A stretch of DNA of 64,000 bases, from contig JBMYOQ010000011.1 in NCBI GenBank assembly GCA_049599475.1, positions 1-64,000 of the forward strand, written 5' to 3'. The stretch comes from Opitutales bacterium (GTDB taxonomy: Bacteria; Verrucomicrobiota; Verrucomicrobiia; Opitutales; JABSRG01). The notes below the pieces were generated by a model, which saw nothing but the letters and a program-made list of their open reading frames with translations, ran no database searches and had not been told where the DNA came from. The position numbers and the translations under genes were made by a program. Of the stretch, positions 4,675 to 25,099 are shown in pieces. Position 1 is the first letter of the stretch; each line of letters begins with the position of its first letter.

Positions 4675-5595
4675 TTGCTGGATGCTGAGTTCCAGCTTTC
4701 TGCAACCGGAGAACACCCATTCTACGTTCTAGAAAAAGAAGATTTCATACCCGTTGACGAATTAGAGATAGGCTTCACCGTGAGCCTGGCGGACGGTAAT
4801 ACCGCTCATATTCGAGACATTCAAACGGAAGAAGCACCCGATGGGGAAACCTTCACCACCTACAATTTTGAAGTAGATGACTTCCATACTTACTTTGCAG
4901 GAGAGCCAGGGGTTTGGGTCCATAATACGGGCAAGAGTCCATGTGATGAGGTATTTAGTTACTTTAGACAAATACTAGATAATGATGCAGCTTTCTACGG
5001 CAAGCCGTGGGGGGCGTTTGCAAATACTGCAGAGAATATGGGCGCAGGTCGTAATAAGGCCATCTTTGGATGGGCTGCTGATGAGGTGATGAGGAAAGAC
5101 CTTAAGGATCTTCCTTTAGCTGATAGAATTGCTCAGTGGCCTAGCCATACTCAGGTAAAGGAAACCATGAGTAACATTCCTGGCGTCAATGCTACGACTG
5201 ACCTGAATGGTGTCGTCAATTACGGTAAGATAGACGTCCCTGATTGGGTGATACAAGATAGAGTTGATCTTGCGCAGGTTAAAGCATTCACATTGGAGTC
5301 ACATCATGGGGTGCCTAAGAAAATCCAAGAGTGGTTAGGTGTAACTAAAGATCGTGACAGTGTTCCTGCTTATCTTACAACTATGCTGGAGCACCGAGGC
5401 GCTGAATATGGAATCCATCAACGTCTTTCTAAAAAACTTGGAGAGAAGATTGGTGTAGACCGAGTTCCACTTAATCGTGATAGGCCGGCAGGGCTTGAAG
5501 ATGATGATATAATTGATGCAATGAGAGAGGTATATGAAGAGGCGGGCTTAAGCCATTTTTGGCAAGTGTGCGATAACTGGCTAACAACTCCGTAG
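4675..5595 (+). CDS. Orphan toxin module: N-terminally incomplete pretoxin Hint domain plus HH-motif nuclease-like tip
   Basis: Hint motifs TGEHPFYV and TYNFEVDDFHTYFAG...VWVHN (HN at 4921-4926). In-frame Hint-like sequence GDIVFSRDP starts at ~4549, right after a TGA (4543-4545), with no start codon or N-terminal Cys. The tip contains LESHHGVP...PAYLTTMLEHRG...IH. Confidence 0.75.
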   Translation: MLDAEFQLSATGEHPFYVLEKEDFIPVDELEIGFTVSLADGNTAHIRDIQTEEAPDGETFTTYNFEVDDFHTYFAGEPGVWVHNTGKSPCDEVFSYFRQILDNDAAFYGKPWGAFANTAENMGAGRNKAIFGWAADEVMRKDLKDLPLADRIAQWPSHTQVKETMSNIPGVNATTDLNGVVNYGKIDVPDWVIQDRVDLAQVKAFTLESHHGVPKKIQEWLGVTKDRDSVPAYLTTMLEHRGAEYGIHQRLSKKLGEKIGVDRVPLNRDRPAGLEDDDIIDAMREVYEEAGLSHFWQVCDNWLTTP

Positions 5596-5599
5596 GCTT

Positions 5600-6517
5600 A
5601 TGACTAAACAATCGACCCGTACGATAAAAATACCGCGCCCATTTTCTGATGAAGAGGTTGAGGTTTTAGGCAAAGATCCAGAGTCTAGGGTTTTATCGTC
5701 TGCTTATGATGCGATCGCTAGTAAGTTTCCGAATTACGTGAAATCGGGGCGAATTGAGCTTAAGAGATCCATTGCAGATAGTGCCTTAGTAGAGTTCTTA
5801 GATTTTGCCAGAAGTGTAGGGGCGAGAATCCCCAAGGATAGATCTCAGAATCATGGGCAATTGAGTATTTTTGATTTAGTCTATCCTAGCTCAAAGGAAA
5901 TTGATTCCTCTGTTTTTGTGACATCTCAGCTGCTCTCTAGTCAGTATATGAGCCTTAATGGAGGGCCGGAGACAAAGGGTCTTGGGGTTTTTTGTGAGAT
6001 TGATGCCGACCTTGAAAAAGACGCAGACCGTGAATTTGGATCCGTCCCGAATCTAGGGCATTTGATTGCAGTTCGAGGTAAGACTAGGCAGAAAATCTTG
6101 AATGCAGGTCTAAGAGGTTTAAAACTAATTGAGATTCCAACTAATACGCCTGATGGAAAATGGCCTGATGATATTGAGCCGTTGAGCGTGATATGGAGTG
6201 ATGAAAAACTTCCACCTGTTCAAAATCACCTTTTTGATAACAAAAAGAATATCTTTTCTTCCGAAGAGATCGATTTTGATAATATCAAAACCCAATTGTA
6301 TTTGATTGATGGTTACAGAATGAATGGGAGACTCTTTTATACAGGACTTCCTGAAGAGTCTTTCGATGTAGCGATTACTCATGAAATTTTAGGGGGAGTG
6401 AAGCCTTGTTATCATCAGCCTTTGTATAGCAAAAAAGCAATTAAAGTGCTCCGGGAGCAAGGAATGGACCTTGAATGTTTGCCTGTAATATCAACTACAC
6501 AGTCTACGTGCACATAG
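5600..6517 (+). CDS. Putative immunity protein for the orphan toxin
   Basis: Starts 4 nt after the toxin stop; AT-rich; 305 aa, no recognisable enzyme motif. Confidence 0.55.
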   Translation: MTKQSTRTIKIPRPFSDEEVEVLGKDPESRVLSSAYDAIASKFPNYVKSGRIELKRSIADSALVEFLDFARSVGARIPKDRSQNHGQLSIFDLVYPSSKEIDSSVFVTSQLLSSQYMSLNGGPETKGLGVFCEIDADLEKDADREFGSVPNLGHLIAVRGKTRQKILNAGLRGLKLIEIPTNTPDGKWPDDIEPLSVIWSDEKLPPVQNHLFDNKKNIFSSEEIDFDNIKTQLYLIDGYRMNGRLFYTGLPEESFDVAITHEILGGVKPCYHQPLYSKKAIKVLREQGMDLECLPVISTTQSTCT

Positions 6518-6646: not shown

Positions 6647-7660
6647 ATGGGCTACCACCGAAGAACTAGGATCCGAGAGAGGCATCTGATGAGGAACGAG
6701 AGCTGTGTTTACCATGTGGTGAATAGGGTGGCATTGGGTAGTATGGTATTGGATGAAGGAGCGAAGGGAATGTTTGTGCAGATGATGCGTAGGCAGGCAG
6801 GTTTTGCTGGGGTGGAGGTGATGGCGTTTTGTGTGATGACGAATCATTTTCATCTGTTGGTTCGGGTTCCTGAGCCTTGTGAAATCTCAGATGAGGAGCT
6901 TTTGAGGCGGTATCGGATCCTTTATGGGAAGCATTGTCCGCAGTCTATGCTGCAACCCGATTACCTGGAGCAGATGTTGGCTGAGGGAGATGAAGATGTC
7001 GAGGAGTGGCGTAAGCGTATTGTTGCTCGAATGCATGACCTGAGTGCCTTTGTAGGCGAGCTGAAGCATCGCTTTTCTATTTGGTTTAATGACCATCGTC
7101 ATAATAAGGGGACGGTGTGGTCTGAGCGTTTTAGGAACATTATTGTTGAGGATTTACCTGAATATACCGCTCCGGTGGCAGCTTACATTGATTTGAATCC
7201 TGTGCGTGCTCAAATGGTGGATGATCCCGGTGAATATGCTTACAGCAGCTATGGCTCTGCCATGAAGGGGAGCCGCTCTGCCCAGTACGGGTTACGGTCT
7301 TTATGTTCCGGAAAACGCACCTGGAAGGTGGCCTTGGAGTCCTATCGTGTTCTGTTGTTCGGAAAGGGATACGAATCTAAAGGAACGCCTCATAAGGATA
7401 AAGGCATGATCGATCCTGATCGTGCGTATCAAGTCATCCAGGACGGAGGTCGTTTGTCCTGGGCGGAATATCTGCGCATGCGCGTCGGTTACTTTGCGCG
7501 AGGAGGTGCGCTGGGGTCCTCGGAATTTGTCAGGACCTTGAAGGGTAGTAATTCGCCGCCAGACCCTGATGCGGTCAGTCCAGGCGGTGCCCGAGTGAAA
7601 GGCTTGGCTGAGAAAGTCTACAGCTTCCGAAATCTGCAGACTGAGGTCTTTGGGAAATAA
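6647..7660 (+). CDS. Y1 HUH transposase, REP-associated tyrosine transposase (RAYT)/IS200-like superfamily
   Basis: YHVVNR, AFCVMTNHFHLLV (HUH), GTVWSERF, YIDLNPVRA (catalytic Tyr), Y.YSSY motifs. Confidence 0.85.
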   Translation: MGYHRRTRIRERHLMRNESCVYHVVNRVALGSMVLDEGAKGMFVQMMRRQAGFAGVEVMAFCVMTNHFHLLVRVPEPCEISDEELLRRYRILYGKHCPQSMLQPDYLEQMLAEGDEDVEEWRKRIVARMHDLSAFVGELKHRFSIWFNDHRHNKGTVWSERFRNIIVEDLPEYTAPVAAYIDLNPVRAQMVDDPGEYAYSSYGSAMKGSRSAQYGLRSLCSGKRTWKVALESYRVLLFGKGYESKGTPHKDKGMIDPDRAYQVIQDGGRLSWAEYLRMRVGYFARGGALGSSEFVRTLKGSNSPPDPDAVSPGGARVKGLAEKVYSFRNLQTEVFGK

Positions 7661-8240: not shown

Positions 8241-8714
8241 ATGCAAGTATACAAGCACGAGCTGATAAAAGTACCCTATACGAGAATACATGTCTGCGTT
8301 TTTCTAATCACGTTATGCATGCTAGCTCTCGGTATTGCAGGGGTGCTTTTTGCCTGTGTTTCGCTGTTCACCCAATCATTCTTCATCCATAGTTTGTTAA
8401 TACCCTGCCTGCCTTTCTCGATTTGGCTCATTAAGACCGGGCGCAAGCATTGGTATTTTGAGGAAATTGATGCGGCCTCGAATCGCATGGGAGATGCCTA
8501 TACCTTTAAGTTACAAGAAGAACGGTCTTCCATAGAGACTTTGCTGCATACGCTCAAAACAGCTGAGTTGACTCTGGAAGAGCGCGTAGAAATTCGTCAG
8601 GAGCTTAAGGCGCTGATACTTTCACTCGAAGCCCAGGAAGGCTTAGAGTCTGTCGTCCATTATTGGCAGAAGATTCCTTACCTGGAGCCGGTAAGAGAAG
8701 AGATGTCGGATTGA
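8241..8714 (+). CDS. Hypothetical membrane protein (two predicted TM helices plus helical tail)
   Basis: Hydrophobic segments VCVFLITLCMLALGIAGVLFACVSLF and FFIHSLLIPCLPFSIWLI; ATG at 8241. Confidence 0.5.
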   Translation: MQVYKHELIKVPYTRIHVCVFLITLCMLALGIAGVLFACVSLFTQSFFIHSLLIPCLPFSIWLIKTGRKHWYFEEIDAASNRMGDAYTFKLQEERSSIETLLHTLKTAELTLEERVEIRQELKALILSLEAQEGLESVVHYWQKIPYLEPVREEMSD

Positions 8715-8796
8715 TCTCATTGGCGCCCCGCTATAGGCAAAGGCATGCCTGGACTAGCCGCTCGGCGCAATGTTGGTTGCAATGCTCTATGAATCC

Positions 8797-9243
8797 TTAC
8801 CGACTGTGGACCTGTGGAATGAGGTGGCCGGTTAGGGTGAGGCCTCCTGAGGAGACACCTTTGCAAGTGACTAATCGGTTTGTGATATGGCGAAGTTGCT
8901 CGACGGGGCCTTGGACCAGCACGACCTCCATAATGTAATCGCCCTCGAGCAAAACGCGTTGGGAGCTGATGACTTCCTCGATGTGCTCCCGTTGAATTTT
9001 AGAGATTTTAGCCAGCAAGCCCTGCTTCGCGGTGTCATAGACAAGGGTGATGGTGCCTGCGAGTACGGCGTTGGGGTCCTTGCTGCGCTCGTCTACCAAG
9101 CTCTCGCGAATCAGGTCGGCGACGGCTTGAGAGCGGTTGTGGAATCCCCGTTCCTCGATCATCGCGTCGAGTTTGTCTACGAGCGTGCTGGGAATCGAAA
9201 GGCTTACGCGGCGTGCGCCGTTGTTCTGCTCATTATTGCTCAT
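8797..9243 (-). CDS. NikR-family ribbon-helix-helix/ACT transcriptional regulator lacking nickel ligands
   Basis: RHH motif RVSLSIP...[22 protein letters not shown] plus NikR C-terminal domain (GTITLVYD...MEVVLVQG); divergent from the ABC/uca operon. Confidence 0.85.
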
Positions 9244-9274
9244 GGGTGCATCTTTTTTTCTTTATCTGTATAAA

Positions 9275-9302
9275 GTAATACTTTTAAGTCAAAAGGTAAT
9301 AC
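9275..9302. promoter_or_regulatory. Putative operator for the NikR-like regulator: GTAATAC-N14-GTAATAC (third inverted copy GTATTAC at 9410-9416)
   Basis: GTAATAC at 9275-9281 and 9296-9302 (21-bp period). The near-palindromic half-sites resemble NikR/RHH boxes. Confidence 0.55.
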
Positions 9303-9324
9303 GATTCTGTGTGAGCCGAACGGG

Positions 9325-9340
9325 TGGCACAAAACGTGCG
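9325..9340 (+). promoter_or_regulatory. Sigma54 (-24/-12) promoter of the ABC-uca operon
   Basis: TGGCAC-AAAAC-GTGCG with exact GG-N10-GC spacing, ~78 nt upstream of ATG 9418. Confidence 0.65.
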
Positions 9341-9417
9341 TTAGGGATACGTGTTCTCATGAATGAGGGCTTTCGAACTCAATTAGCATTCTTTAACTTC
9401 ACATAAATAGTATTACG

Positions 9418-10413
9418 ATGCTCAAACAAACAAAAGCAGTGGCAAAAACTTGCCTTCTCGGCCTCGCGAGCCTGTTCGCTGGGTTCTCAGTAAACGCAGA
9501 ACCTTTGAAAATTGGTTATAGTGACTGGCCAGGGTGGGTCGCTTGGGAAATCGGCATTAGCAAGGGCTGGTTCGAAGAAGCCGGTGTAGAAGTCGACTTC
9601 AAGTGGATGGATTACGTAGCATCTATGGACGCTTACGTTGCTGGCACTCTCGACGCGGTTTCTATGACAAACGGAGATGCGCTTGTGACTGGTGGAACTG
9701 GAAAACCTTCTGTCGGCATCATCATTAACGACTTCTCTAATGGTAACGACATGATCGTTGCTCAACCAGGTATCGAGTCTCTGGAAGATCTGAAGGGTAA
9801 GAAGATCGGCCTCGAAGAAGGCTTCGTTCTTCACCTTCTTCTCCTGAAGGCTGCTGAGAAAAAGGGTATCGACCCATCAGAATTCGAGATCGTAAACGTT
9901 CCAACGAACGAGACTCCTCAAGTGCTCGCTTCTAAGGATGTGGACGCGATCGGAGCTTGGCAGCCAAGCTCTGGCCAATCTCTGAAGACAGTTCCAGGGT
10001 CTAAGCCTGTGTTCACATCAGCGGACGTTCCTGGTCTCATCTACGACGTTCTTTACGTCGATCCAGAAAGCCTCGAAAAGCGTCGCGACGACTGGGCGAA
10101 GGTAGTCAAGGTCTGGTACAAGATCGTCGATTTCATCAAGGACGAGGACAACCTCGACGAAGCTCTCGAAATTCTCGCAGGCCGCGTATCTATCTCACCA
10201 GAAGAGTATGAGCCTTTCTTTGGTGGCACTTACATTCTCACGCTTGAGGAAGCCCTTAAGGTATGGGAAAAGGCTGAAGGACTTGAGTCCATCTACGGAT
10301 CATCGGTTATCTCCGACAAGTTCAACGTCTCACAGGGCGTTTACGAGGAAGCTCTCGATACAGAGAAATACCTCGACCCTAGCCTCACTATGGAATACGC
10401 GAAGTCTAAGTAA
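9418..10413 (+). CDS. ABC transporter substrate-binding protein (NMT1/SsuA-like, urea carboxylase-associated type)
   Basis: Signal peptide; [27 protein letters not shown] motifs. Confidence 0.88.
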
Positions 10414-10455
10414 GCTTCAGACCTTTTCACACAAAGAATAATCTAATGTGTATGA

Positions 10456-10486
10456 AGGCGGGCCCGACCCGGCCCGCCTCCTTTTT
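10456..10486 (+). terminator. Rho-independent terminator/attenuator-like hairpin after the SBP gene
   Basis: Stem AGGCGGGCC / GGCCCGCCT followed by CCTTTTT. Confidence 0.6.
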
Positions 10487-10630
10487 GCCCAAATACTGGG
10501 AAAAACCAAAAGAAATACACTGCAAATATGTATCGTTTAGGCGGATACGAACATTCGCCCTCCTTTATATTTATCTTGAGGAAGGCAAATTTTCGTAATC
10601 GCCCAAATCGCACAATTGCTCTCTTGAAAG

Positions 10631-12007
10631 ATGCCAAGCTCTAAAAAAACAAAGGCGCAAAAGCGCTCATGGTTCGCCATTCGTAAGGATTTAGACGCTA
10701 AGCAGCGCACAATTCTCACTTTCCTATCCTTTCTTACGCCGCTCTTTATCTGGTCATTGGTCAGCTACTCGCCCTTTATCTGGCGCCCCGATATCAAACT
10801 ACAGATCTCTGCTGAGCGCGAAGGAATCACAACCGTATTCACTCCAGGAGACCATCTCTCTAAAGAGTTTTTCCCGACATTTGTAGAGGGCGTTCAAAGC
10901 GACAATGCCGCTATCATGGCTGAGCGAGAGTCTGGTGATATCAAGGGCACCGGTTCGCGCATTCGACGTGCTAATCTGAAAAAAATGCGCCACATTGCCG
11001 CTGTCGCTACCGCGAATGGCTGGCTCACGAAAGATCAGGCAGAAGAAGATGCAGAGCTTTATAAAATTTGGGGTGGAGTCGCCCAAGGCACCTTGGTCCA
11101 AGATAAGGTAAAGCTGAATGAAGAAAACATCGGCATCATTCAGCGCAATTGGGCTCTGATGGTGGAGCGCAGCGAGGTCTATGAATCCAAGCTGCTCCCA
11201 GAAGTTCCGTTGGAAAAATTGATTCCTCAAGGAAAAGCCGCAAACCCTGTTTTTTTGCCAGCTCCGCATGAGGTCCTATTAAAGGGGATTGAGGATTTTA
11301 CCTTCAGTACTGAAGGGGATAAACCCGCCATGTTTGAGCGCTACAAGCACTCGCTCACGATTGTCTTTTCCGGATTCCTCTTGGCTGCTTTGATCGGAAC
11401 GCCCCTCGGAATTATGTGCGGGACTTTCGATTTCTTCTCAAAATTATTTGAACCCTTCATCGACTTCTTCCGATACATGCCAGCTCCGGCATTCAGCACG
11501 CTGCTCGTGGCGATTCTTTCGCTGGGTGATGCGCCGAAAGTTGGTCTGGTTTTCCTGGGAACCTTTTTCCAGCTCGTATTGGTTGTAGCGAATACGACAC
11601 GACAATTGGACGCTTCTTTAATCGAAGCTGCGCAAACGCTCGGAGCTAAAGGGTTTACATTAATTCGCCGAGTCATTTTGCCGGGAATTACTCCGAATTT
11701 ATATAATGATATGCGCATCCTCCTAGGGTGGGCCTGGACATGGTTGGTCATCGCGGAACTCATCGGGACCAAGTCGGGCTTGACCGAGTTTATTGATGTC
11801 CAGGGCCGCTTCCGCAATTTCGACAGTGTCTATCCAATCATCATTTTGATTGGTATGTCCGGGTTCGCGACGGACCAATTTTTGTCATCCCTGCGCAAAT
11901 ATCTCTTCCCTTGGACGCCTGAAGCTTCTGAGAAGAAACATGGCCCATTTGGAAAATTCTTCCTCTGGGTCATCGACCGCAACGCCTACGTAGACCAGAA
12001 AGGATAA
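10631..12007 (+). CDS. ABC transporter permease (SsuC/TauC-like) with a large extracytoplasmic insertion
   Basis: [23 protein letters not shown] loop [24 protein letters not shown]. Confidence 0.9.
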
Positions 12008-12013
12008 AAAGCA

Positions 12014-12913
12014 ATGAGCGACGTAATTGATTTACCCAGTTATAAAGATCAAAGCGAAGCGGTTCGTAAGCGTTTCGAGGAAATTAAAAAGCGCCCGATT
12101 AAGCTCGAGGTAAAAGGTGTGAGCAAGAGCTTCACTACTGCCAAAGGCACTGTGGACGTGCTGAGCCCGATTGAGTTCAACGTCCATCGCCGTGAGTTTA
12201 TCTCAGTTATCGGGCCCTCGGGTTGCGGTAAGTCTACCTTGATCCGGATGCTTGCGGGGCTCGAAACCCTCTCGGGCGGCACCTTCCTACTCGATGGCGA
12301 AGAGCCGCACGGCCCCGGGGCCGATCGCGGTATGGTTTTTCAGGGCTATACGCTGTTCCCATGGTTGAGCGTGAAGAAAAATGTCATGTTTGGCCTAGAG
12401 ATCAACGGGCGCTCGGGCACAGCTGTTGAGCAAGAGGCCTTGCAATGGATCGAACTCGTGGGACTCTCCCACGCTGCAGAAAAATATCCTAGCCAACTCT
12501 CGGGTGGCATGAAGCAACGTGTCGCGATTGCCCGCGCATTGGCAAACCAGCCACAGATTCTCTTTATGGATGAACCCTTTGGTGCGCTGGATCCACACAC
12601 ACGTTGCCAAATGCAGTCTCACCTGTTGCAGATCTGGCGCAATGTGGATGTCACCATCATGTTTGTGACACACGACTTGGACGAGGCGATTTACCTGTCG
12701 GATCGCATCCTTGTTTTAAAAGCAAATCCTGGTGAAATTCATGAATTCATCGAGGTACCGGTGGAACGTCCACGGACTCAGGAATGCCTCTTGAGCCCAG
12801 AATTCCTGGCGACCAAACAGCGCCTAGAAGAACTCATCCACCCGAAGTCAGAAGAGGAAGAAGAACAACTTCCAATAATCAAAATGACGGAGGCCGACGA
12901 CGAAGTAGAGTAA
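12014..12913 (+). CDS. ABC transporter ATP-binding protein (SsuB/TauB/NrtD-like)
   Basis: Walker [10 protein letters not shown], signature LSGGMKQR, Walker [17 protein letters not shown]. Confidence 0.93.
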
Positions 12914-12915
12914 GC

Positions 12916-13692
12916 ATGCCTGAAACTTCGAACAGTCAATGGTCGATCATGACCTGGCCCGAGATTTTGGATACAATCAATTCGGGCTGCGATGCGGCTA
13001 TTCTACCCCTCGGTGCGACCGAACAACACGGTCCTCACCTAGGCACGGGTATGGATAGCGTGATCGCTGAAAAGCTTTGTGCTGCTGTTGCAGAGCGGAC
13101 GGGCGTTCCCATGTTGCCGACACTGACTTACGGCTGTTCAATTGGGCACTCGCATCGCTGGCCAGGTACCCTCGCCCTGAGCCCGGCAACCTTTATCGCC
13201 GTGCTCACGGATATCGGTGACTGGCTCTACAAAGCAGGCGTGCGTCGTTTATTCATGATCAATTGCCATGTGGGCAATGCGGCTGCGGTGCGCTGTGCGC
13301 TCGATACCTTGCGTTGCCGCTATGACGACATGATGATCGCGGCGTTCAACGACGGTGATTTGACGCCCGAGATTCAGGCCATCTTCGCGTCCGACGGCGC
13401 TGACTGGCACGCCAACGCCTCGGAAACGAGCCTCATGCTCAGTCATGCTCCGGAGATGGTGCGTCCTGAACTCCTCGATACCTCTGATGATCCTGATCGC
13501 ACTGAAGACTGCGTCTTTGCTCACCCGGTAAACCGGACAAGTACCAATGGTGTGACCGGGCGGCCCAGCGAGGCGAGTGAAGAGGCCGGTCATAAACTTT
13601 TTGAACTGCTTGTTGAGACGTTGACAGACAAAATCAAAAAAGGCCTCACAGAACAACCCCCTCTAAACGCATCTTACTTTAAACGTATTTGA
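12916..13692 (+). CDS. Creatininase-family metal-dependent amidohydrolase
   Basis: [13 protein letters not shown]...[27 protein letters not shown]. Start reassigned to ATG 12916, just after the ATPase stop. Confidence 0.88.
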
Positions 13693-13703
13693 ATAATAGA
13701 CAC

Positions 13704-13732
13704 AGGTAGGGGCCGGCGTCCTCGCCGAGCCG
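13704..13732 (+). repeat. GTAG-type REP-like element (copy 1)
   Basis: AGGTAGGGGCCGGCGTCCTCGCCGAGCCG, similar to copies at 26919-27005 and 56361-56387. Confidence 0.55.
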
Positions 13733-13807
13733 AGGCTGAAAATACGGTCAAACGGTGACGCATACCTCTGCCTTTGAGTTTCAAACAATCTTAAACCCAA
13801 AACACCC

Positions 13808-15229
13808 ATGAAAGATTTTTACGCAAAATACAATAAGGCCGCGGGCAACCTCTATAGCGACGGTGAGCGCTGGAGCCCGGAGCAGGTGGAGGCGATTCAA
13901 GCTGAGCTGCAAAAGCTGGGCGTTAAGTATTGTGCAGGCAACTACGTAGACATCCACGGCGTGCCTAAAGGGAAGGTTGTCCCCGTGAGCCATTTTGCAG
14001 ATTTCGCTGCGGGGTCTGAGCTTTACACTGGGTATGCGCTCGACGGCCTGGGGCAGAGTCCCAATGATGATGAAATCGCATCTGTGCCTGACCTCGGGAT
14101 GATCATTCCGCTTCCCTGGAATCCTGAAGTGGCGTGGATCCCGGCGGATAATACCCTGCATGGGGAGCCCTATGAAGTAAACGCACGAGTCATATTGCAG
14201 AAGGTCTTAAAAGAGGCTGAAGAGATGGGCTTCGGCATGAATTTGGGCATCGAGTGTGAGGTCTTTGTCTTAAAACAGACCGAAGAGGGCACGCTTGAGA
14301 TCCCCAATAGTGACGATAATTTAGAAAAGGCCTGCTACGACTTTAAGCGCTTCATGGATCGCTATCCCTGGCTCGACAAGATGGCTACGGCGATCGACGA
14401 TTTGGGCTGGGATTTGTATTCCTTCGACCATGAAGATGCGAATTCACAGTTTGAGTTCGATTTCAAATACGCAGATGTGCTCACCATGTGTGACCGCTTC
14501 GTTTTCTTCCGCAATATGGCAAAATACTATGCCTCGGAAGAGGGGTTGATTGCTACTTTTATGCCTAAGCCCTTCGCCGATAAGACGGGTAGTGGAGCGC
14601 ATTTCAATATGTCCCTCTTTGATAAGAATACAGGCGAAAACCTATTTAAATGCAGGAAGGAAGATGATCCGCGTGGACTCGGGCTCAGCGAGCTGGGCTA
14701 CCAATTTAGCGCAGGTATTCTCAAGCACGGACAAGCGCTCTGTGCGGCATTTGCGCCGACTGTTAACAGCTACAAGCGTCTCGTCCGCCGCGGCCTCATG
14801 TCCTACTACTCATGGGCTCCAGTCTTTAATTCCTACGGCAGTAATAACCGCACAAACTCTCTGCGCGTCCCCATGGCAGGTGGCCGCGTAGAATCGCGCA
14901 ATGCAGATGCAGCGTGCAACCCTTACTTTGCTGCGGCCCTTGCGCTTGCGGCTGGCCTTGAGGGCATCAAAGAGAAACTCAATCCTGGCGATCCTCAGGA
15001 AGACAATTTATACGAGCTGAGCCAGGCGGAACTCGCAGAGCGTGGCATTAGCGAACTCCCTCGGACCCTGGACGAGGCAGTCGAAGCCTTTGCCGCAGAT
15101 CCCTTTGTCGAAAAGGTACTCGGCACAGAGCTGCGCAAGGAATTCATTACCTATAAGTCAGAGGAATGGCGCCAATACCACCAGCGCATTAGCCAGTGGG
15201 AAATCGACGAATACGCGAGGCTCTACTAA
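13808..15229 (+). CDS. glnT: Glutamine synthetase-like gamma-glutamyl ligase, type III/GlnT (GmaS-related)
   Basis: [62 protein letters not shown]. Confidence 0.8.
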
Positions 15230-15252
15230 ATTTTCTACAGAGTATCAAACCC

Positions 15253-16005
15253 ATGAATACTGAAAAACCCAACCCACCGCTCGGTTCGAGCGATCTCATA
15301 TACAACACTACACTGCCCGGAGCTACAATGTGGTCGAAAGTCATCGGCCGTGGAAAAACCCTGCGTATGACGAATAGAGAGGGCACTGCAAATGTTGGCA
15401 TGCTGCTATACAATGCTTACGAGAAGCATGAGCGCTACAACATGCCGGATACCCTAAAGGGCCAACATGTTTTTTACCTGACAAGCCCATATTGCCTGCA
15501 TTCTGATATGGGTCGTATATTCGCCTCTATCACGGGGGATACCTATGGTTGGCACGACACCGTTTGCGGCTGTTCAAATCCCGAATCATTGAAAGCGAAA
15601 TATGGCACCAAAACTTTCCAGGAGGCGCGCAATGGTTTCTATAAGGATGCTCGCACAAGTTTCCTGATTGAGCTGGCAAAATGGGGGCTCGGCAAAAAAG
15701 ATTTGGCTCCGAATATCAATTGGTTCAGTAAGGTTGTGGCTGATGAAGAGGGAAAAATTTCGATACCAGTGGAAGAGCCCAAGCCCGGTAGCTACGTGGA
15801 TGTTTATTTCGAAATGGATACCTTAGTTGTGCTCAATACATGCCAACATCCTCTGGATCCACGTCCGGAATATGCGCCAGGGAGAGTGGAATTGGAAGTT
15901 TATAAGACGGAGTTAAAGCCCGAAGATAATCCTTGCTTGAAGAGCCGCCCAGAGAATTTGCGGGCGTATGAGAATAACGAAGAATATCACGCGCTGCGTT
16001 TCTAA
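15253..16005 (+). CDS. cgdA: Urea carboxylase-associated protein 1 (UAAP1/DUF1989; carboxyguanidine deiminase subunit)
   Basis: [30 protein letters not shown]; likely ATG at 15253. Confidence 0.85.
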
Positions 16006-16025
16006 CCCCGAAATACCTGACAAAA

Positions 16026-16667
16026 ATGCTTACAGAGAGTACTTTAGACCTATCAACAGCAGTTTATCGCGAAGTCGTGCCTGCCGGAGAACATTGGTTG
16101 CATACAATCAAAAAGGGGCAGACCCTACGCTTGGTAGACCTGGAGGGTAATCAAGCGGCTGATACGATTTTTTACGATGCGCATGATCCAGAAAATCGAT
16201 ACAGTGCGAATGATACGATCCTGAGCCAACAGGCACTCTATTTAACTACGGGGTCTAAGCTGATGTCTACGATGGGCGACTTGCTTTTGACTATCACTGC
16301 CGACACCTGTGGTCGCCACGATACGGTGGGAGGCGCTTGTTCGCGTGAGAGCAATACGATGCGCTACGCACACAATAAGATTCATCTACACGCATGTCGT
16401 GATGTATTCATTACAGGTCTCCAAGAATGGGATGCTGATGTCGGGAAACGAGATATTACCTGCAATATCAATTTTTTTATGAACGTTCCAGTGACTCCCG
16501 AGGGTAAATTGACGTTTGAAGACGGTATATCTGCACCGGGGCGCTATGTAGAAATGCTGGCTGACCGTGACGTCGTATGTCTGATTTCGAACTGTCCGCA
16601 GCTTCTAAACCCCTGCAACGCTTACAATCCGACCCCCATAGAAGCCATCATCTGGGACCCCAAATAA
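16026..16667 (+). CDS. cgdB: Urea carboxylase-associated protein 2 (UAAP2/DUF1989; carboxyguanidine deiminase subunit)
   Basis: [47 protein letters not shown]. Confidence 0.88.
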
Positions 16668-16670
16668 GCC

Positions 16671-19600
16671 GTGTTTAAAAAAGTTCTTATTGCGAATCGC
16701 GGCGAGATTGCTTGTCGCATTATCCGTACTTTGTCCGAAATGGGCATCGAATCGGTGGCGGTCTATTCCGAAGCTGATGCAGATGCTCCGCATGTCTCGA
16801 TGGCCACTGAGGCATTCTTGCTGGGGCCGGCGGCTGTCAGTGAAAGTTACTTACGTATCGAGCGTATCCTCGAAATTGCCAAGCAGAGTGGCGCCGAAGC
16901 CATCCATCCCGGGTACGGGCTCTTGAGTGAAAATGCTGATTTTGCGACACAGTGTGAGGCTCAAGGGATTGCTTTCGTTGGGCCGACTCCGGGGCAAATG
17001 CTCGAGTTTGGCTTAAAGCACGAGGCACGTCGTCTTGCGGAGGAAAACCAAGTGCCACTGCTGCCAGGGAGTGATTTGCTGTCGGGCTTGGACGAAGCGT
17101 TGAGCACTGCGGAAAATGTCGGCTATCCGGTAATGCTGAAGAGCACTGCGGGCGGTGGCGGCATTGGCATGCAGATCTGTGGTGATGCAGCGAGTCTGTG
17201 TGAGGCTTATGATCGCGTTGAGCGCCTGAGCCAAAGCCACTTCGGTCAAGGTGGTATTTTTCTAGAAAAATATGTCACCCTGGCGCGCCATCTCGAAGTG
17301 CAAATATTTGGCGATGGCGCAGGTAGTGTAGTGTCCCTGGGGGTACGCGATTGCTCAGCCCAGAGACGAAACCAAAAGGTGATTGAAGAAACACCTCCGC
17401 CGAATGTCCCAGACTCTGTTGTTTCGGGGCTGGAGCAGGCTGCTCTGCGCCTGGCGCGTGGTGTGTCATATCGCTCTGCGGGAACGGTTGAGTTTATTTA
17501 CGACAATGACACCCAGGAATACTATTTTCTTGAGGTGAACACGCGCCTCCAGGTGGAGCACGGAGTCAGCGAGCTCGTTACAGGCGTGGACCTCGTCCGC
17601 TGGATGGTCGAGCAAGCAGCAGGTGAATTGTCATTGCCCAATACAGACAGTATTCCTCAAAAGGGACACGCCATACAGACGCGTCTCTACGCGGAGGACC
17701 CGCATCGCAATTTTCAGCCTTCCAGCGGCACGCTGACGCATGTGGAATTCCCGGAGGACGTGCGTTGCGACCACTGGATAGCCTCGGGATCAGAGATCAC
17801 ACCTTATTACGATCCCTTGTTGGCGAAGCTTCAGGTGTATGCGGACGATCGTCCTTCCGCAGTGGATGCTCTGCAAAAGGCTTTATCGGAAACACGCATA
17901 GATGGACTAGAAAGCAATCTGGCCTACCTACGATCGATTGTAGCCGATGACGTATTTTGTAAGGGAACAGTGGTGACGCGTTCTCTGGGAGAGCACACCT
18001 TTCGCCCACGAAGCTTTGAAGTGTTGAGATCGGGCACCATGACCACAGTGCAGGATTTCCCCGGGCGTGTTGGCTACTGGGATGTCGGTGTGCCGCCGTC
18101 TGGGCCTATGGATAATTTTAGCTTCCGTCTTGGAAATCGGATGCTCGGCAACTCGGATGACGCTGCCGGGCTCGAGATTACGGCGACTGGGCCTAAACTG
18201 AGCTTCAATTTTCCAACACGAGCGGTCCTTACAGGGGCTCCGATGAGCGCTTCGCTCGATGGGCAAGCTGTCGAATTTAACAATCCATTCGACATCCGTG
18301 AGGGTGCCGTCCTCGATGTGGGCTCGGTGCTCGAAGCCGGGGTGCGTGCCTACCTGCTCATTCAAGGAGGCCTGGATATTCCGAAATATCTAGGCAGCCG
18401 CTCGACCTTTACCCTTGGGAAATTCGGCGGGCACGGTGGCCGCGCGCTGCGCGTGGGTGATGTCATTCATATGCTGCCTGCAGACGACTCTGGGGCTGAG
18501 GCTGTTTTTACGGTAGAACATCTTCCTGAAATTTCCACTACATGGGATATCGCAGTGTTGTCCGGCCCGCATGGTGCTCCAGACTTCTTTACGGAACGGG
18601 ATATCACTGAATTCTTCGAAACGGATTGGAAAGTCCACTTCAACTCTGCGCGCACAGGTGTGCGTTTGATTGGGCCGAAGCCCGAATGGGCGCGTCCAGA
18701 CGGTGGTGAAGCGGGACTGCACCCATCGAATTTGCATGATAATGCGTATTCTATCGGAGCTGTTGATTTTACCGGAGACATGCCTGTTATCCTGGGCCCG
18801 GATGGCCCAAGTCTAGGGGGCTTTGTCTGCCCGGTTACGATTATCGAATGCGAGCTGTGGAAAATGGGGCAGTTGCGTCCAGGAGATTCGGTGCGTTTTC
18901 GATGCCTATCGCCAGATGAAGCCAAGGCAATGACTGTGGCCTATCAAGCAACACTTGAGGAGGCTGCACCACTGCTTGAATGTGCGAAGCGTTTGCACTA
19001 TCCGAGTGCTGACGAGGCGATTCTCCATAGCTCCGGATCTGGCGATGAACAGATTGTGGTAAGACGGGCCGGGGACACGAATGTATTGGTCGAGATCGGC
19101 CCGATGGCTCTCGATTTCCGACTCCGTTTCCACATTCACGTATTGTACGAGGCCTTTAAAAAGCGAGAGATCGTCGGCGTGTCAGACTTGACGCCGGGGA
19201 TTCGCTCCCTGCAGGTCCATTTCGACCCGAAGCTGATTTCGGCGGCTAGCATTTGTGAGGCTATAGTGGATACGAATGCTAGTTTGCCTGCTCTAGAGAA
19301 TGTCACAGTGCCATCGCGCGTGGTGCACTTGCCTCTCTCCTGGGATGATCCCTCGACCCAAGAAGCGATTGACCGCTATGTGAGCACGGTGCGTGCAGAT
19401 GCACCTTGGTGTCCTGATAATATCGAATTTATCCGCCGGATCAATGGGCTCGATTCCCGCCAAGACGTGTATGATATTGTGTTTAATGCGCGATACGTTG
19501 TCCTGGGCCTCGGGGATGTATATTTGGGCGCTCCGGTCGCTACACCGATGGATCCACGTCATCGATTAGTCACTACGAAGTATAACCCTGCTCGAACTTG

Positions 19601-20267
19601 GACGCCCGAGAACGCAGTCGGAATCGGCGGTGCCTACATGTGTATCTACGGCATGGAGGGCCCTGGAGGCTATCAATTTGTCGGCCGAACGATCCAGATG
19701 TGGAATTCCTACGACAGTGAAGCACCCTTTGAAGTGGGGAAGCCTTGGTTGCTTCGCTTCTTCGACCAGATTCGCTTCTACCCAGTCAGTGAAGACGAGT
19801 TAAAAACGCTGCGTAAGGACTTTCCGGCGGCACGCTTTTCACCGAAAATCGAAGAAGGCCATTTCAGCCTGTCTGAGTATCAAGGATTCTTAGACAAGAA
19901 TTCGGAAAGTATTGCTGAATTCAAAAGCTCACAGAAAGTGGCATTTGAGGCCGAGCGGAAACGCTGGGAAGCAGCTGGAATCGCGGCCTACATCGACGAT
20001 TCAGAAGTAGAAACCGAAGTGGAGACTGCAAGCTTGCCGGAGGGCGCTGTGCCTGTGGAGAGCCCTGTAGCGGGAAGCCTTTGGAAAATTTTGGCAAATG
20101 AAGAAGGGGCCGAGATTGAGGAAGGAGATACCCTCGCGATCTTAGAATCCATGAAGATGGAAATTCAGATTGCGGCGCCGGCTTCGGGAACGCTTTGTTT
20201 AATTGCATCGAAAGAGGGCCAGACATTGGACCCCGGACAACTGCTCTTTGCTATTCAACCGAAATAA
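16671..20267 (+). CDS. uca: Urea/guanidine carboxylase (biotin carboxylase + carboxyltransferase + biotin carrier)
   Basis: [66 protein letters not shown] biotinylation motif. Confidence 0.95.
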
Positions 20268-20270
20268 GAA

Positions 20271-21989
20271 ATGCTTCAGATCACATCCTTACTTTCAGAC
20301 TACCGTGCAGGCACGCGCACGCCTCGAGAGGTATTAACATCTCTCGTTGAAAAAATCAAAAGCTCCGACAATCCGAAAGTCTGGATCTATGCATTGAGCT
20401 TGGAGGAAATCGAGCCATGGATTGCGCGTTTGGAAGGTGCGTCTCCGGATAGTTTACCGCTCTATGGCGTTCCCTTTGCGATCAAGGACAATATCGACCT
20501 AGCAGGTATTCCGACAACGGCGGCATGTCCCGAGTATGCATATACTCCAGAAAAATCGGCGACTGTAGTGGAAAACTTGATCGCGGCAGGCGCGGTGCCT
20601 TTGGGTAAAACAAACCTTGACCAATTTGCCACGGGCTTGGTCGGAGTCCGTACGCCCTATGGAACACCGGTGAATCCGATAGCCCCTGATCGTGTGCCCG
20701 GGGGCTCAAGCTGTGGATCGGCTGTCGCTTTAAGCGAAGGCTTTGTCAGTTTCTCCCTGGGGACGGATACCGCGGGCTCTGGGCGGGTACCAGCGGTTTT
20801 TAATAAGCTGTGGGGCGTGAAACCCAGCCGGGGCCGTTTAAGTAATACCGGACTGGTTCCGGCATGTAAGACCTTGGACTGTATTTCGATTTTTGCCTTC
20901 GATGCTGAGGGCGCAAAGTTGGCGCTGAGTGCTGCGGAAGGTTTTGACGAATCGGATGCGTATTCGCAGCCCGTTATCAACAAGCCCGTTCCTACTGAGT
21001 CAGTCTTGGGGATTCCGCAGCCGGATCAACTTATGTTCTTTGGCGATGCTCAATATGATGAAGCATGGGTTGCTGCTAAAGCAGAACTTAAGGCTAAAGG
21101 CTGGACGCTGCGGGAGGTCGATTTTTCTCCGTTTATTCAGGCGGCTCGCCTATTGTATGAAGGGCCGTGGGTCTCTGAGCGCTATGCGGCCATCGAAACG
21201 TTCTTAAAGGAGCAGCCGGAATCTGTATTCCCCGTAACACGACAAATTATATCCGGTGGCGGTGATCACTCCGCACGTGATGCCTTTGTGTCGACCTACA
21301 AACTCGCGGAGCTCAAGCGCAAATCGGAAGCAGCCTGGGAAGGCGTCGCGGCGATTGTCACGCCGACAGTCGGCGGATTCCCGACGCTTGAAGATATGGA
21401 AAAAGATCCGGTAGGACCCAATTCTCAATTGGGTTATTTCACCAATTTTATGAACCTGCTCGACCTGAGCGCTCTGGCTGTGCCGGCTGGAGAAGCACCG
21501 AGTGGACTGCCTTTCGGAATCACCTACATCGCGCCGCGTGACAGTGATCAAGCTCTTCTTGAAATCGCTAGTAAGGGTCCAGTGGATACATCCATGTCAT
21601 CGCCAGAAACGGTATCCATTATCCTATTTGGTGCGCACATGAGTGGCTTGCCATTGAATACCCAAGTCCTCGGCCTCGGCGGAACCTTCGTCGGCGAAGT
21701 GAAAACGGCCGAAAAATATAAAATGGTCTATCTACCCGAGCCCAAGCCTCATCGCCCTGGTATCGTAAAAATAGGCGAGGGCGGTGTCTCAATTGCGTGT
21801 GAAGAGTGGAGTTTCCCGGCTGAGAGTGTAGGGGCCTTTTTGGCCTCGATATCCACGCCGCTTGGCCTCGGTCAAATTGAACTGTCGGACGGTCGCTACG
21901 TTCACGGTTTCCTATGCGAACCCTACGCGGCAGACGCTGCCGAAGATATTTCAAGCTCCGAGGGCTGGCGGGCTTACTTAGCTGACTGA
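20271..21989 (+). CDS. atzF: Allophanate hydrolase
   Basis: Amidase signature [44 protein letters not shown]-terminal [10 protein letters not shown] domain. Confidence 0.93.
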
Positions 21990-21996
21990 TTTTTTA

Positions 21997-22078
21997 AACC
22001 ACAGAGGGCACAGAGAGCACGGAGTATCTAAGAATCGCATGGAGCTTTTTCTTCGTGCTCTTAGTGCCCTCTGTGGTT
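21997..22078. repeat. Long imperfect intergenic inverted repeat (REP/MITE-like)
   Basis: AACCACAGAGGGCAC (21997-22011) pairs perfectly with GTGCCCTCTGTGGTT (22064-22078); pairing continues imperfectly inward. Confidence 0.6.
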
Positions 22079-22324
22079 CTTGTAAGAAGTTCTGGCAAGC
22101 CTTTGGAATTATTGATGACCGGCAGTTCAGGATAGTTTTCCGCAGATTTTACAGATAGACGCAGAATGATTATAGGTAATTGCCCCGTTTCCTCTTTGCG
22201 TCTTCGCTGCTTGAGCGCAGCGGGCGTGAGACTTTGCCTAAAACACGTAGGTGATACCGAAAAGTTAGACAGTGTTGGTATACGTGGTTGATAATTGATT
22301 CTTACCAGCCAGTCTCCAGGGAAT

Positions 22325-25099
22325 ATGGCCGATTCCGAGGGTCCCAAATTACCAGATGAAAAAGAAATCGCTGAGCTTTCGCGTGAAGCCCAAGCTGCTC
22401 TTGCTGCGCGTTGCGCTTTGCGTGTATTCCCGTTTATTGGAGCTCAGGGGCATTTAAATTTCTGGGGAGAAGATGTTGCCCGCCATTTGAATGGAGTTTG
22501 GGCAGCAGTTTTGGTTGCATTGACTAAAGATCATTCCGCCGCCCACGCCACCGCCGCCGCCACTGCCGCCACCGCCACTGCCGCCGCCACCGCCACTGCC
22601 GCCGCCGCCGACGCCGCTTACGCCGCCGCCAACGCCGACGCCAACGCCGCCTTAAACGCCGCCGCCTACGCTGCCTTAAACGCCGCCGGTGACGAATTTC
22701 TGGCCTCTTTTCGACTTTCGGTTAGGGATGATTTTGAGCGCCTTAAGTCGGGAGAACGTCCCGATTGGGATTTTGTCGGGTCTCCCTTATTTGGAAAAAT
22801 TGGAATGTCCCTGGAGGATTGGGTGACGTCCGATATCGGTAAGGCTTTTGGGTCAATTGGCGCGGGGGTCATCCTAGATATGTGGATTTCCTTCTTCCAT
22901 GGTGAGGCATCGTTGGAGAGGTGTCGGGAGTGGTTGGAGCGCTGGAAGGCTGAATACGGAGACTTTGATGAAGAGCCTGTAAGGAAAGAGGTGAAGGCTG
23001 TAGCGAAGAAGGTTCCTGCTAAGAAGAAGAGGCCTCGAACAGTTCAAGAATCTTCTACGGAAGACATAGACCAGACAACAGACTCAACGATATCGAAATT
23101 TTCTGACGATGGCATCCCTGCAGGCTCCATGGATGGTCCGGCGAGTGAGGATGCTTTGGGGCGGGACCCTTTGATCAAGAGTTTGGCGAATATGCTTTCG
23201 ATTAAGGATCAGGGGACACCGATTACCTTGGGTTTGTTCGGGCATTGGGGCTCTGGGAAGAGTACTGTGATGCGGCTGTTGCAGAAGGAGTTGAGCAGTG
23301 AGGAGACTCAGCATAAATATTCAGATTTTGATTTCCTGTTTGGGTGGTTCAATGCTTGGGAGTATGAGCACACCGATGACATTCGTGCAGGGTTAGCGCA
23401 GGAAGTTGTGAATGGGCTTCTCAATGATGGACAATATGCGGAAGAGGAGCGCTGCTATAGTAAGCGCATATCTTGGCGTCAGAAATTTTTGTTACAAATT
23501 CAATATTTGCTGAGCGAGAAGCCTAAAGAGAGTCTTGGTCTCGCTCTAAAGGTATTTGCTGTTGTGATGTCTGCTTTCTTGGGGCTGGGGGGTGTGGTCG
23601 CGAGTAGTTCGGATTCTCTGCGCGAAGTCATCATGTTTTCATTTTCGGGGAGTGGAGAGTCGGGTGACCCTGTTTCCGGATTTGCAACGCGCCATGAGAT
23701 TTCTGCGGAAGAAGAGCCTGAGGACCCTAATTTACTGGCAGATGTCGTTACCGCACTAATCGAATTTTTAAAAGACCCGGGGGCCGGCGGTCAGATTTTG
23801 GGGACGAGTGCCTTGGTCTTTTCCGCTTTTTTGGGTTTTCGTTGGCTTCCCGATGCCAAGCGTTTGTGGGACCATCCCTTGGCCACAGATTTGGGCACCT
23901 TTTTCAAATTACCATCCTACCGTGAAGAATTAGGTCAGATCCCTGTTATTCGGAAGCAATTGGAGGGGCTCTGTAAAATAAGGTTAGGTAACACAACAAA
24001 AGAGCCGACCTGGTGGGAGCGGGTTGTAGGGAAATTATGTAAGCCACTGCGGCAAAAGGAACCGGAAAGACCGAAGCGCCTGATTGTTTTTATTGATGAT
24101 CTGGATCGTTGTCAGACTGAGAAAATTGCCGAGACTTTCGATGCTGCGCGCCTGATTGCTCATATCGAAGGCGTTATCTTAGTCATTGGGATTGATGAAC
24201 GGATAGCCTTCAACGCGATGGGCCGAACGTATGAGGAATATGCTGAAGGGGACGCGGGTCGGAAACCAGAAGACGTGGCTCGAGACTACTTAGGTAAAAT
24301 CATCCAAGTACCGGTTCGCTTGGAGCCGCCGACAATTCGCGAATTGAAAGGATTCATCGAAAATCAATTGTTTGTCGATGGGGTCCCTGCACCGCCACAG
24401 ACTGTCATTGATCCAAGCGGACAAGAGAACGCACCTGCGGATCATGAGGAGACTATAAATGAGAATCCCGCGCAAAGCGAGGATCCCAAAACGCCAGAGA
24501 CGCGTGATAAAAAAGTTGATACAGCGACTCGTGTTGAGGATCGGAAAGCCCCGTCGCCTGAAGATAAGATTCAAGAAATGCACGAAAAAGAGGCAAAAGG
24601 TGCGAGTGAAGAGCGCAGTCGGATGGTAGAGACAAACGAGGAGAAAATCCATTTTGTGACGCTTTGCCATATTTTTGATTTCAATAATCCGCGACAGCTT
24701 CTGCGTTTGAAGAATACCTACCGTCTGTTGAAGGCTTTGCTGCGAAGACGACAAGCAGGGAGAAATCGAGCGGATATGCCTGATAACCCACTGAGCTTGC
24801 TACGAATGCTATTCTGGCTGGAGTTCCAGTTGGAATCTAGCCCTGAAGAGGTCCACAAATGGGTAAAGACATCTCTGGAGCCGGATGATACTTCATTAAA
24901 ATCTGAATACAAAAAATTCAGCGATAAGTTTCCGAAACCCAAGCTTGTTGAAGATTGCTGGCGATTCGATGCTCAGAAAGATCGGCGGACGAAGGCTTAC
25001 AAAGAAGGTCAGGAGTTTCAGGCTCTGGAAGAGTTTACCCGCACCTGTTTGCTTCCTTACCCAAGCCGAGAAGCCGGAGCGACCGAGGATGATGCGTGA
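22325..25099 (+). CDS. KAP-family P-loop NTPase with TM segments and an N-terminal Ala-rich helical domain
   Basis: GLFGHWGSGKST, FNAWEY, hydrophobic segments between Walker A and B, LIVFIDDLDRC, YLGKIIQVP, NPRQL.RL.N; likely ATG 22325. Confidence 0.88.
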   Translation: MADSEGPKLPDEKEIAELSREAQAALAARCALRVFPFIGAQGHLNFWGEDVARHLNGVWAAVLVALTKDHSAAHATAAATAATATAAATATAAAADAAYAAANADANAALNAAAYAALNAAGDEFLASFRLSVRDDFERLKSGERPDWDFVGSPLFGKIGMSLEDWVTSDIGKAFGSIGAGVILDMWISFFHGEASLERCREWLERWKAEYGDFDEEPVRKEVKAVAKKVPAKKKRPRTVQESSTEDIDQTTDSTISKFSDDGIPAGSMDGPASEDALGRDPLIKSLANMLSIKDQGTPITLGLFGHWGSGKSTVMRLLQKELSSEETQHKYSDFDFLFGWFNAWEYEHTDDIRAGLAQEVVNGLLNDGQYAEEERCYSKRISWRQKFLLQIQYLLSEKPKESLGLALKVFAVVMSAFLGLGGVVASSSDSLREVIMFSFSGSGESGDPVSGFATRHEISAEEEPEDPNLLADVVTALIEFLKDPGAGGQILGTSALVFSAFLGFRWLPDAKRLWDHPLATDLGTFFKLPSYREELGQIPVIRKQLEGLCKIRLGNTTKEPTWWERVVGKLCKPLRQKEPERPKRLIVFIDDLDRCQTEKIAETFDAARLIAHIEGVILVIGIDERIAFNAMGRTYEEYAEGDAGRKPEDVARDYLGKIIQVPVRLEPPTIRELKGFIENQLFVDGVPAPPQTVIDPSGQENAPADHEETINENPAQSEDPKTPETRDKKVDTATRVEDRKAPSPEDKIQEMHEKEAKGASEERSRMVETNEEKIHFVTLCHIFDFNNPRQLLRLKNTYRLLKALLRRRQAGRNRADMPDNPLSLLRMLFWLEFQLESSPEEVHKWVKTSLEPDDTSLKSEYKKFSDKFPKPKLVEDCWRFDAQKDRRTKAYKEGQEFQALEEFTRTCLLPYPSREAGATEDDA
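22538..22687 (+). repeat. GCC-rich low-complexity tandem tract encoding poly-Ala within the KAP gene
   Basis: Units such as ACCGCCACTGCCGCC repeated, then GCCTTAAACGCCGCC twice. Confidence 0.8.

Follow-up and report, generated by a model that had tools for sequence, protein, structure and literature searches.

A conserved ligase–hydrolase pair in a probable guanidine-scavenging operon of an Opitutales bacterium

This study describes an operon at positions 8797–21989 of a 64,000 bp window, i.e., the first 64,000 positions of contig JBMYOQ010000011.1 (assembly GCA_049599475.1) of an Opitutales bacterium, in which the genes of an ABC importer and of the guanidine carboxylase pathway are joined by two further genes, one for a creatininase-fold hydrolase and one for a glutamine-synthetase-like ligase. 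The locus very probably serves guanidine scavenging. For the pair, we tentatively propose that guanidine, or a closely related compound, is reversibly gamma-glutamylated and so kept in a holding pool, a reading based on sequence and on the analogy with a known ligase–hydrolase system, to which we give somewhat less than an even chance.

All ten genes are intact, with nine co-oriented, uninterrupted open reading frames (ORFs) on the forward strand at 9418–21989 and a divergent regulator gene on the reverse strand at 8797–9243, and the family assignments made in a preliminary description of the locus hold according to curated family models and profile scores. That description also spoke of short spacers, which is correct for six of them (2–23 bp), whereas two are long, namely 217 bp between the binding protein and permease genes and 115 bp between the hydrolase and ligase genes. 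The order binding protein, permease, ATPase, hydrolase and ligase recurs in 22 of 22 loci of the comparison set, and the arrangement is therefore not due to chance. The earlier proposal that the pair extends the guanidine carboxylase pathway in a conserved manner was supported by a neighbourhood survey of 113 loci chosen for their hydrolase gene: the ligase gene is its direct neighbour in 100 of them, the other 13 are too short to judge, and none lacks the ligase. One protein of 744 aa is a fusion of ligase and hydrolase. Across 401 genomes of the phylum, the hydrolase clade was found in 18, a ligase match in 19 and cgdA in 41. The same 18 genomes hold hydrolase and ligase, all of them within the 41 with cgdA, and the nineteenth ligase match is a true GmaS beside mgsABC. 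The hydrolase also occurs in 12 of 400 genomes from the class of genome G432 (Thioalkalivibrio) and had no plasmid match at 1e-40.

Guanidine as the probable substrate of the operon

The carboxylase, the two DUF1989 deiminase subunits and the allophanate hydrolase all score above their curated cut-offs. The urea/guanidine carboxylase (16671–20267, 1198 aa) reaches 1803 on TIGR02712 (cut-off 1304) and the allophanate hydrolase AtzF (20271–21989, 572 aa) 691 on TIGR02713 (cut-off 511). The carboxyguanidine deiminase subunits at 15253–16005 (TIGR03425) and 16026–16667 (TIGR03424) are presumably CgdA and CgdB, respectively. Asp699 of the carboxylase aligns with Asn1330 of the urea amidolyase of the yeast K. 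lactis, which we take to be the specificity position of a published rule. By this rule, an Asp is indicative of a guanidine carboxylase and an Asn of a urea carboxylase (PMC12186494). Asp is present in every carboxylase motif matched in two sets of fetched loci (51 of 51 and 19 of 19). Every one of the 32 genomes with the cassette has a carboxylase match, 28 of them above the cut-off and the rest partial or frameshifted. Two of the genomes surveyed (G344, G281) have two carboxylase copies each, and no urease was found in them; in locus L144 of G044 (10880–13387), a split-off unit of regulator, cgdAB and carboxylase lies near a gene for dinitrogenase reductase ADP-ribosyltransferase.

The importer consists of an NMT1/SsuA-type substrate-binding protein (9418–10413), a permease (10631–12007, 458 aa) and an ATPase (12014–12913, 299 aa), all recognised by family matches. 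The permease carries an insertion of more than 100 residues compared with many relatives of about 320–350 aa. The binding protein is likely guanidine-binding; its best family is TIGR03427 with a score of 150 against a cut-off of 334, and it has no close solved structure. Of the 23 genomes of the phylum with cgdA and without the pair, 19 were fetched as plain operons for comparison, and 17 of these have a binding protein of the same clade (45–71% identity). No diagnostic residue separates the binding proteins of 29 cassette operons from those of the 17 plain ones, and on the binding-protein tree the pair underwent at least four gains or losses (parsimony 7). The preliminary description had suggested that a special substituted substrate enters through this importer, which finds no support in view of the shared clade in pair-less operons and of the guanidine-I riboswitches that lead the cassette elsewhere.

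Such riboswitches were found directly 5' of the cassette binding protein in L046, L049, L075, L054, L056 and L127 in an Rfam search of 24 loci, and our own profile, built from ten Rfam guanidine-I matches, added L073 and L076 and also matched the pair-less Paraburkholderia locus L183. No guanidine riboswitch was detected in the window at the gathering score, nor within 8600–22400 at E values up to 5, and the guanidine-I profile had no match anywhere in this genome (4.68 Mb, 96.6% complete). One guanidine-I switch that was tested did not bind methylguanidine (PMC12508155). Taken together, the importer, the riboswitches and this non-binding of methylguanidine suggest that the compound taken up and sensed is plain guanidine. 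In addition, an orthologue of the guanidinase GdmH (E 2e-160 to 7ESR/7OI1) lies behind the complete cassette in metagenome locus L086 and precedes the hydrolase, itself at the contig end, in metagenome locus L112; GdmH was not found in the 32 cassette genomes by a search that included no positive-control genome. A urease is encoded in this genome and, among the 32 cassette genomes, in 19; this genome further has a GlnII-like glutamine synthetase, on contig C88, so that neither function depends on this operon.

The ligase–hydrolase pair

The ligase (13808–15229, 473 aa) scores 617 on TIGR03105 (GlnT; cut-off 470), and its nearest solved relatives are the GmaS structures 9QUR (E 3e-114) and 7CQL (E 2e-86). 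Its residues were mapped onto the numbering of RhGmaS (PMC7948447), according to which K30', Y147, D177, E179, E186, H235, R288, W300, R312, E325 and R327 are retained. Since these include the catalytic and glutamate-binding residues of GmaS, the ligase should still form gamma-glutamyl phosphate. The position of the ammonium-binding Asp50' is taken by Thr74 and that of the flap Glu by Trp336, a loss shared with GmaS, and the earlier view that this is no ordinary glutamine synthetase is thereby upheld; its product is likely an organic gamma-glutamyl amide, as had also been proposed. It is thus very improbable that both proteins are ordinary enzymes, i.e., an ammonia-dependent glutamine synthetase recapturing ammonia and a creatinine hydrolase. 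Such an assignment would agree with the NCBIfam name of the ligase, type III glutamate-ammonia ligase, and with the acceptance of ammonium by RhGmaS, although at a high Km (PMC7948447). However, Thr74 and Trp336, the GlnII-like synthetase on C88, the score of the hydrolase below the creatininase cut-off and the lack of any sarcosine-oxidase-like genes in searches of this genome all argue against it.

The ligase is about 43% identical to GmaS and forms a clade of its own (SH-aLRT 100 in a quick tree with midpoint root). It differs from GmaS by the changes A45'E, A48'T, Q175S and N188D, which correspond to E71, T74, S205 and D218 here and, together with D207, give the signature ETSDD. This signature is found in 82 of 82 rows of the clade, whereas the four GmaS sequences encoded next to mgs genes read AAQDN. 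A role in the methylamine pocket of RhGmaS is documented for Q175 and N188 (PMC7948447), and the placement of E71 in the pocket is assumed. As inferred from the sequence, a wider and more acidic pocket would suit the guanidinium cation and would echo the Asn-to-Asp switch of the carboxylase.

These data bear on the explanation given in the preliminary description, according to which the operon imports and cleaves a substituted guanidine or urea, for example methylguanidine, and the released amine is trapped as a gamma-glutamyl amide in the manner of GmaS. In favour of this explanation, the nearest solved relatives are GmaS enzymes, all of whose catalytic residues are retained, and the GFA-family (formaldehyde-activating) genes close to the accessory module may point to methylated substrates. 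Nevertheless, we regard it as improbable. Of the 32 cassette genomes, four have a true MgsC, while the 19 that belong to this phylum have none, with weaker matches only in seven others. Orthologues of mgsABC (N-methylglutamate synthase) and mgdABCD were not found in this genome, so that gamma-glutamylmethylamide could not be processed further. The pocket is altered at all four positions throughout the clade, an out-of-sample match with the GmaS signature adjoins mgsABC (L182), and G432 retains both paralogues, the present ligase type and GmaS. In the loci examined, the ligase was never seen beside mgsABC and always beside a creatininase-fold gene. Moreover, formaldehyde rather than methylamine is set free in the methylguanidine pathway that has been characterised (PMC12508155).

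A second ligase subtype, in which ETSDD is kept and Gly replaces the glutamate-binding Arg288, was observed in L044 (10374–11852), in tandem with a normal ligase, and in L131 (801–2246). To judge by this exchange, it may act on an acid other than glutamate or serve as a subunit without catalytic function.

The hydrolase (12916–13692, 258 aa, with ATG at 12916) matches PF02633 (E 6e-69), yet it reaches 126.8 against a cut-off of 235 on the creatininase equivalog TIGR04448. Its predicted structure (pLDDT 87.7) shows the fold of the P. putida creatininase (1Q3K, 1J2T, 3A6D) with a TM score of 0.80, and this fold has been solved with 1-methylguanidine bound (3A6D). E36, H38, D47, H118, H165 and E170 are invariant in 106 hydrolase sequences and are presumably the ligands of a binuclear metal centre as in creatininase. 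In contrast to creatininase, to which it is about 30% identical, the hydrolase has its own conserved loops and no context of a creatine/sarcosine pathway, and all 106 sequences have G, T or S at the position of E122. H78, W82 and a DDPDRT loop are conserved across the clade. Creatininase cuts an acyl-guanidine bond, and a glutamylated guanidine would carry a bond of this type, which makes its hydrolysis a candidate role for this enzyme.

Regulation and a second operon

The divergent gene (8797–9243, reverse strand) encodes a NikR-like ribbon-helix-helix (RHH) regulator of 148 aa with RHH and NikR_C domains, scoring 109.7 on NF003381 (cut-off 105) and below the cut-offs of four other NikR models. 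The nickel-ligand positions, which we take to be H76, H87, H89 and C95 of E. coli NikR, read R85, R96, L98 and I104, and all four ligands are thus lost. The protein shares its domain architecture with NikR (2BJ1, 1Q5V), and its predicted operator has two half-sites within 28 bp, the geometry known from E. coli NikR. It differs in that its predicted targets are guanidine and not nickel-uptake genes. The predicted operator at 9275–9302 consists of two GTAWTAC half-sites 21 bp apart and is followed by a predicted sigma-54 (-24/-12) promoter, TGGCA-N7-TGC, at 9325–9339 on the forward strand. Of 60 regions 5' of the binding protein gene, 49 contain a sigma-54 box, with about 1.7 expected. NtrC-like activators are encoded in the genome, none of them above the cut-off.

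The motif GTAWTAC-N14-GTAWTAC, with up to two mismatches, is present in 37 of 41 loci with a NikR-like gene (one of them doubtful), in none of five riboswitch-led loci and in 4 of 14 others, compared with 0.4 expected over all 60, counts that are not independent because the motif was first noticed in those very sequences. A matrix trained without this genome gave a score of 30.0 at exactly two sites in 4.68 Mb, with 17.5 as the next score and 19.8 as the maximum of shuffled sequence. One of the two is the window site at 9275; the other, at C59:3872–3899, lies 10 bp before genes for a Rieske oxygenase (452 aa), a formylglycine-generating-enzyme (FGE)-like protein (224 aa) and a TIM barrel (277 aa) and is accompanied by a GG-N10-GC box. 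This second operon (G000:C59:1054–3899, L143) thus resembles the first in its predicted operator and in a box of the sigma-54 type. The nearest solved relatives of its oxygenase are biphenyl dioxygenase and carnitine monooxygenase, and no reductase gene was seen beside it. All three families also occur inside extended cassette operons (L044, L095, L102). Substituted guanidines are probably handled by this separate oxidative module on the other contig, behind the same operator.

The NikR-like gene is also present in 16 of the 19 pair-less operons, and 11 of these 16 have operator sites, a count made without a shuffle control. In Acinetobacter, such a site precedes the gene of a regulator with 29% identity. 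Two ideas on the signal were set against the loci. The ligase product was rejected as inducer in view of the pair-less operons that keep the regulator and of the riboswitch-led loci that keep the pair without it. A regulator that silences a nickel-free route in the presence of nickel is weakened by L086, in which the nickel-dependent GdmH lies behind the same operator.

Proposed role, alternatives and significance

In the proposed mechanism, guanidine would be imported under nitrogen starvation, with sigma-54 providing the nitrogen control, and would be carboxylated, deiminated and hydrolysed to three ammonia by the established pathway. The ligase would make gamma-glutamyl-guanidine from glutamate, ATP and guanidine, or from a close analogue sharing the importer, and the creatininase-fold enzyme would hydrolyse it back to glutamate and guanidine. 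Such a holding pool would retain the imported guanidine, lower its toxicity and feed whichever degrading enzyme is present. The NikR-like protein would repress through the 28-bp operator, standing in for the guanidine-I riboswitch, and the C59 operon would dealkylate substituted guanidines. The holding pool is suggested by the analogy with AtdA1/AtdA2, a co-expressed ligase–hydrolase pair that buffers gamma-glutamylanilide (PMC11335346). AtdA1/AtdA2 and NpaA1/NpaA2 (PMC11335346), which belong to the aniline and 1-naphthylamine dioxygenase systems, respectively, share with the present system, as predicted, a glutamine-synthetase-like ligase, a co-expressed reversing hydrolase and a Rieske oxygenase in the regulon. 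They differ in that the hydrolase is an amidotransferase there and of the creatininase fold here, the oxygenase is optional here and lies on another contig, and the context is guanidine.

Several points weigh against this mechanism. Its weak point is that, without an oxidase, the pair would form an ATP-consuming cycle without net chemistry. Guanidinium is a poor nucleophile, and a more reactive analogue may therefore be the true substrate. With E122 lost, the bond specificity of the hydrolase is unreadable from the fold, and CgdA/CgdB show no diagnostic residue that tracks the pair (53 cassette versus 19 and 18 plain operons). The pair is optional, being present in 18 and missing from 23 of the 41 cgdA-positive genomes of the phylum, counts that are descriptive and not independent, as the sampled genomes are related. 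An oxidase together with a TIM barrel occurs without the pair in L183, and the TIM barrel (at least 38% identity) is found in only 12 of the 32 cassette genomes. As regards the regulator, at least 39 of 46 NikR-like relatives lack the Cys ligand; however, many retain one to three His, which are kept at the three nickel positions in 38, 22 and 17 of the 46, so that the regulator may also sense a metal. A variant of the mechanism, in which the glutamyl group is a required tag for oxidation, is weakened by the pair-less L183 and the limited occurrence of the TIM barrel.

The futile-cycle problem would disappear, with two enzymes only, if gamma-glutamyl-guanidine were cut at the amidino carbon to give glutamine and urea, which would be a third guanidine-assimilation route requiring neither biotin nor nickel. 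It would fit the acidic pocket, the altered hydrolase site (loss of E122; H78, W82 and DDPDRT), the fusion protein and the riboswitch control, and the urease encoded by this genome and by 19 of the 32 cassette genomes. The carboxylase, however, accompanies the cassette in all 32 genomes, including four in which the two are unlinked, urease was not found in 13 of the 32, and in L086 the cassette shares one operon with GdmH, which already converts guanidine to urea. To our knowledge, the known enzymes of the creatininase family attack a carbonyl. We therefore consider this route unlikely, though with an appreciable chance. It is more doubtful that the pair is such a third route and that, at the same time, the NikR-derived repressor with its GTAWTAC-N14-GTAWTAC operator is the first protein sensor of guanidine, replaces the guanidine-I riboswitch and also controls oxygenases acting on substituted guanidines. 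Such a sensor would be of interest since a 2025 review states that a guanidine-binding regulatory protein is not yet known (PMC12186494).

Alternatively, the pair may turn one co-imported analogue (hydroxyguanidine, an acyl-guanidine or a cyclic acyl-guanidine) into guanidine and be inert on guanidine itself. The pair is optional and always found with a guanidine-degrading enzyme of either type, its neighbours (Rieske oxygenase, desaturase, 2-oxoglutarate (2OG) dioxygenase, lactonase fold, GFA and glutamine amidotransferase) suggest scavenging of derivatives, and creatininase opens an acyl-guanidine. Against this, the importer is unchanged with or without the pair, and no two-step, non-redox route of ligase and hydrolase could be drawn from a known natural analogue; we rate this alternative as unlikely.

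Among the neighbouring genes, a module of desaturase-like, lactonase-fold, TIM-barrel and EamA genes recurs around the cassette (L047, L052, L087, L117, L183), and the TIM barrel partners a Rieske, desaturase or 2OG oxidase depending on the locus. For the TIM barrel and a 272-aa protein of L070, no solved relative and only generic names from the atlas were obtained. A class I glutamine amidotransferase gene lies directly 3' of the ligase in L052 (7502–8212) and L083 (7397) and is possibly a gamma-glutamyl hydrolase. GFA-family genes adjoin the cassette or the accessory module in L128 (5850–6371) and L154 (2280–2723), and a 50%-identical copy in this genome (G000:C60:258–680) lies away from the module and has no operator.

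Three further elements belong to the operon itself. A GC-rich hairpin with a T-run on the forward strand 3' of the binding protein gene (10456–10489; z -3.0, with 2 of 200 shuffles folding equally well) is possibly a partial terminator or mRNA stabiliser. The 115-bp spacer at 13693–13807 contains a hairpin-forming repeated element with seven blastn matches in the genome including itself, and a long single-copy hairpin (21997–22079; z -8.7, 0 of 200 shuffles) closes the operon. Elsewhere in the window, a pretoxin-HINT ORF with an unassigned C-terminal part is followed by an unassigned ORF of 305 aa (4675–6517), which looks like a polymorphic toxin tip with its immunity gene. A gene resembling REP-associated tyrosine transposases lies at 6647–7660, and a 934-aa KAP-family P-loop NTPase with an Ala-rich N-terminal repeat and a weak QatA match (105 versus 600) at 22295–25099. 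The closest named relatives are Coraliomargarita-like Verrucomicrobiota with 79–89% identity; a contig scan for relatives with one protein as query returned five loci.

Compared with the described guanidine carboxylase pathway (PMC12186494), the locus likewise has all core genes, an Asp-type carboxylase and an ABC importer. It differs in the extra ligase–hydrolase pair, in a binding protein below the TIGR03427 cut-off, and in the NikR-like regulator, operator and sigma-54 box that take the place of a riboswitch, none being found in the window. The methylguanidine demethylase MgdH/MgdL (PMC12508155) is likewise encoded by accessory genes that extend a guanidine carboxylase operon, with a 2OG dioxygenase and a lyase there and a ligase and a hydrolase here. 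A 2OG dioxygenase gene co-occurs with the pair in L070. The gene set was previously regarded as uncharacterised, and in agreement with this, no paper on the pair or the NikR-like regulator was found in a search that covered mainly open-access articles. The locus is thus a conserved and apparently undescribed version of the guanidine carboxylase system, to which it adds two uncharacterised enzymes and a repressor that may respond to guanidine.

Two routes of guanidine assimilation are known so far, and research on guanidine metabolism is active. The ligase clade, which is labelled as type III glutamine synthetase in databases, could be miscounted as the methylamine marker gmaS. Beyond this, the hydrolase is a candidate for the cleavage of acyl-guanidines, and the NikR-like protein, for which an operator and a further target operon have been predicted, is a candidate repressor under the control of guanidine. 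If the proposed functions are true, they would represent a new reaction or a new sensor for nitrogen scavenging in aquatic Verrucomicrobiota and Gammaproteobacteria.

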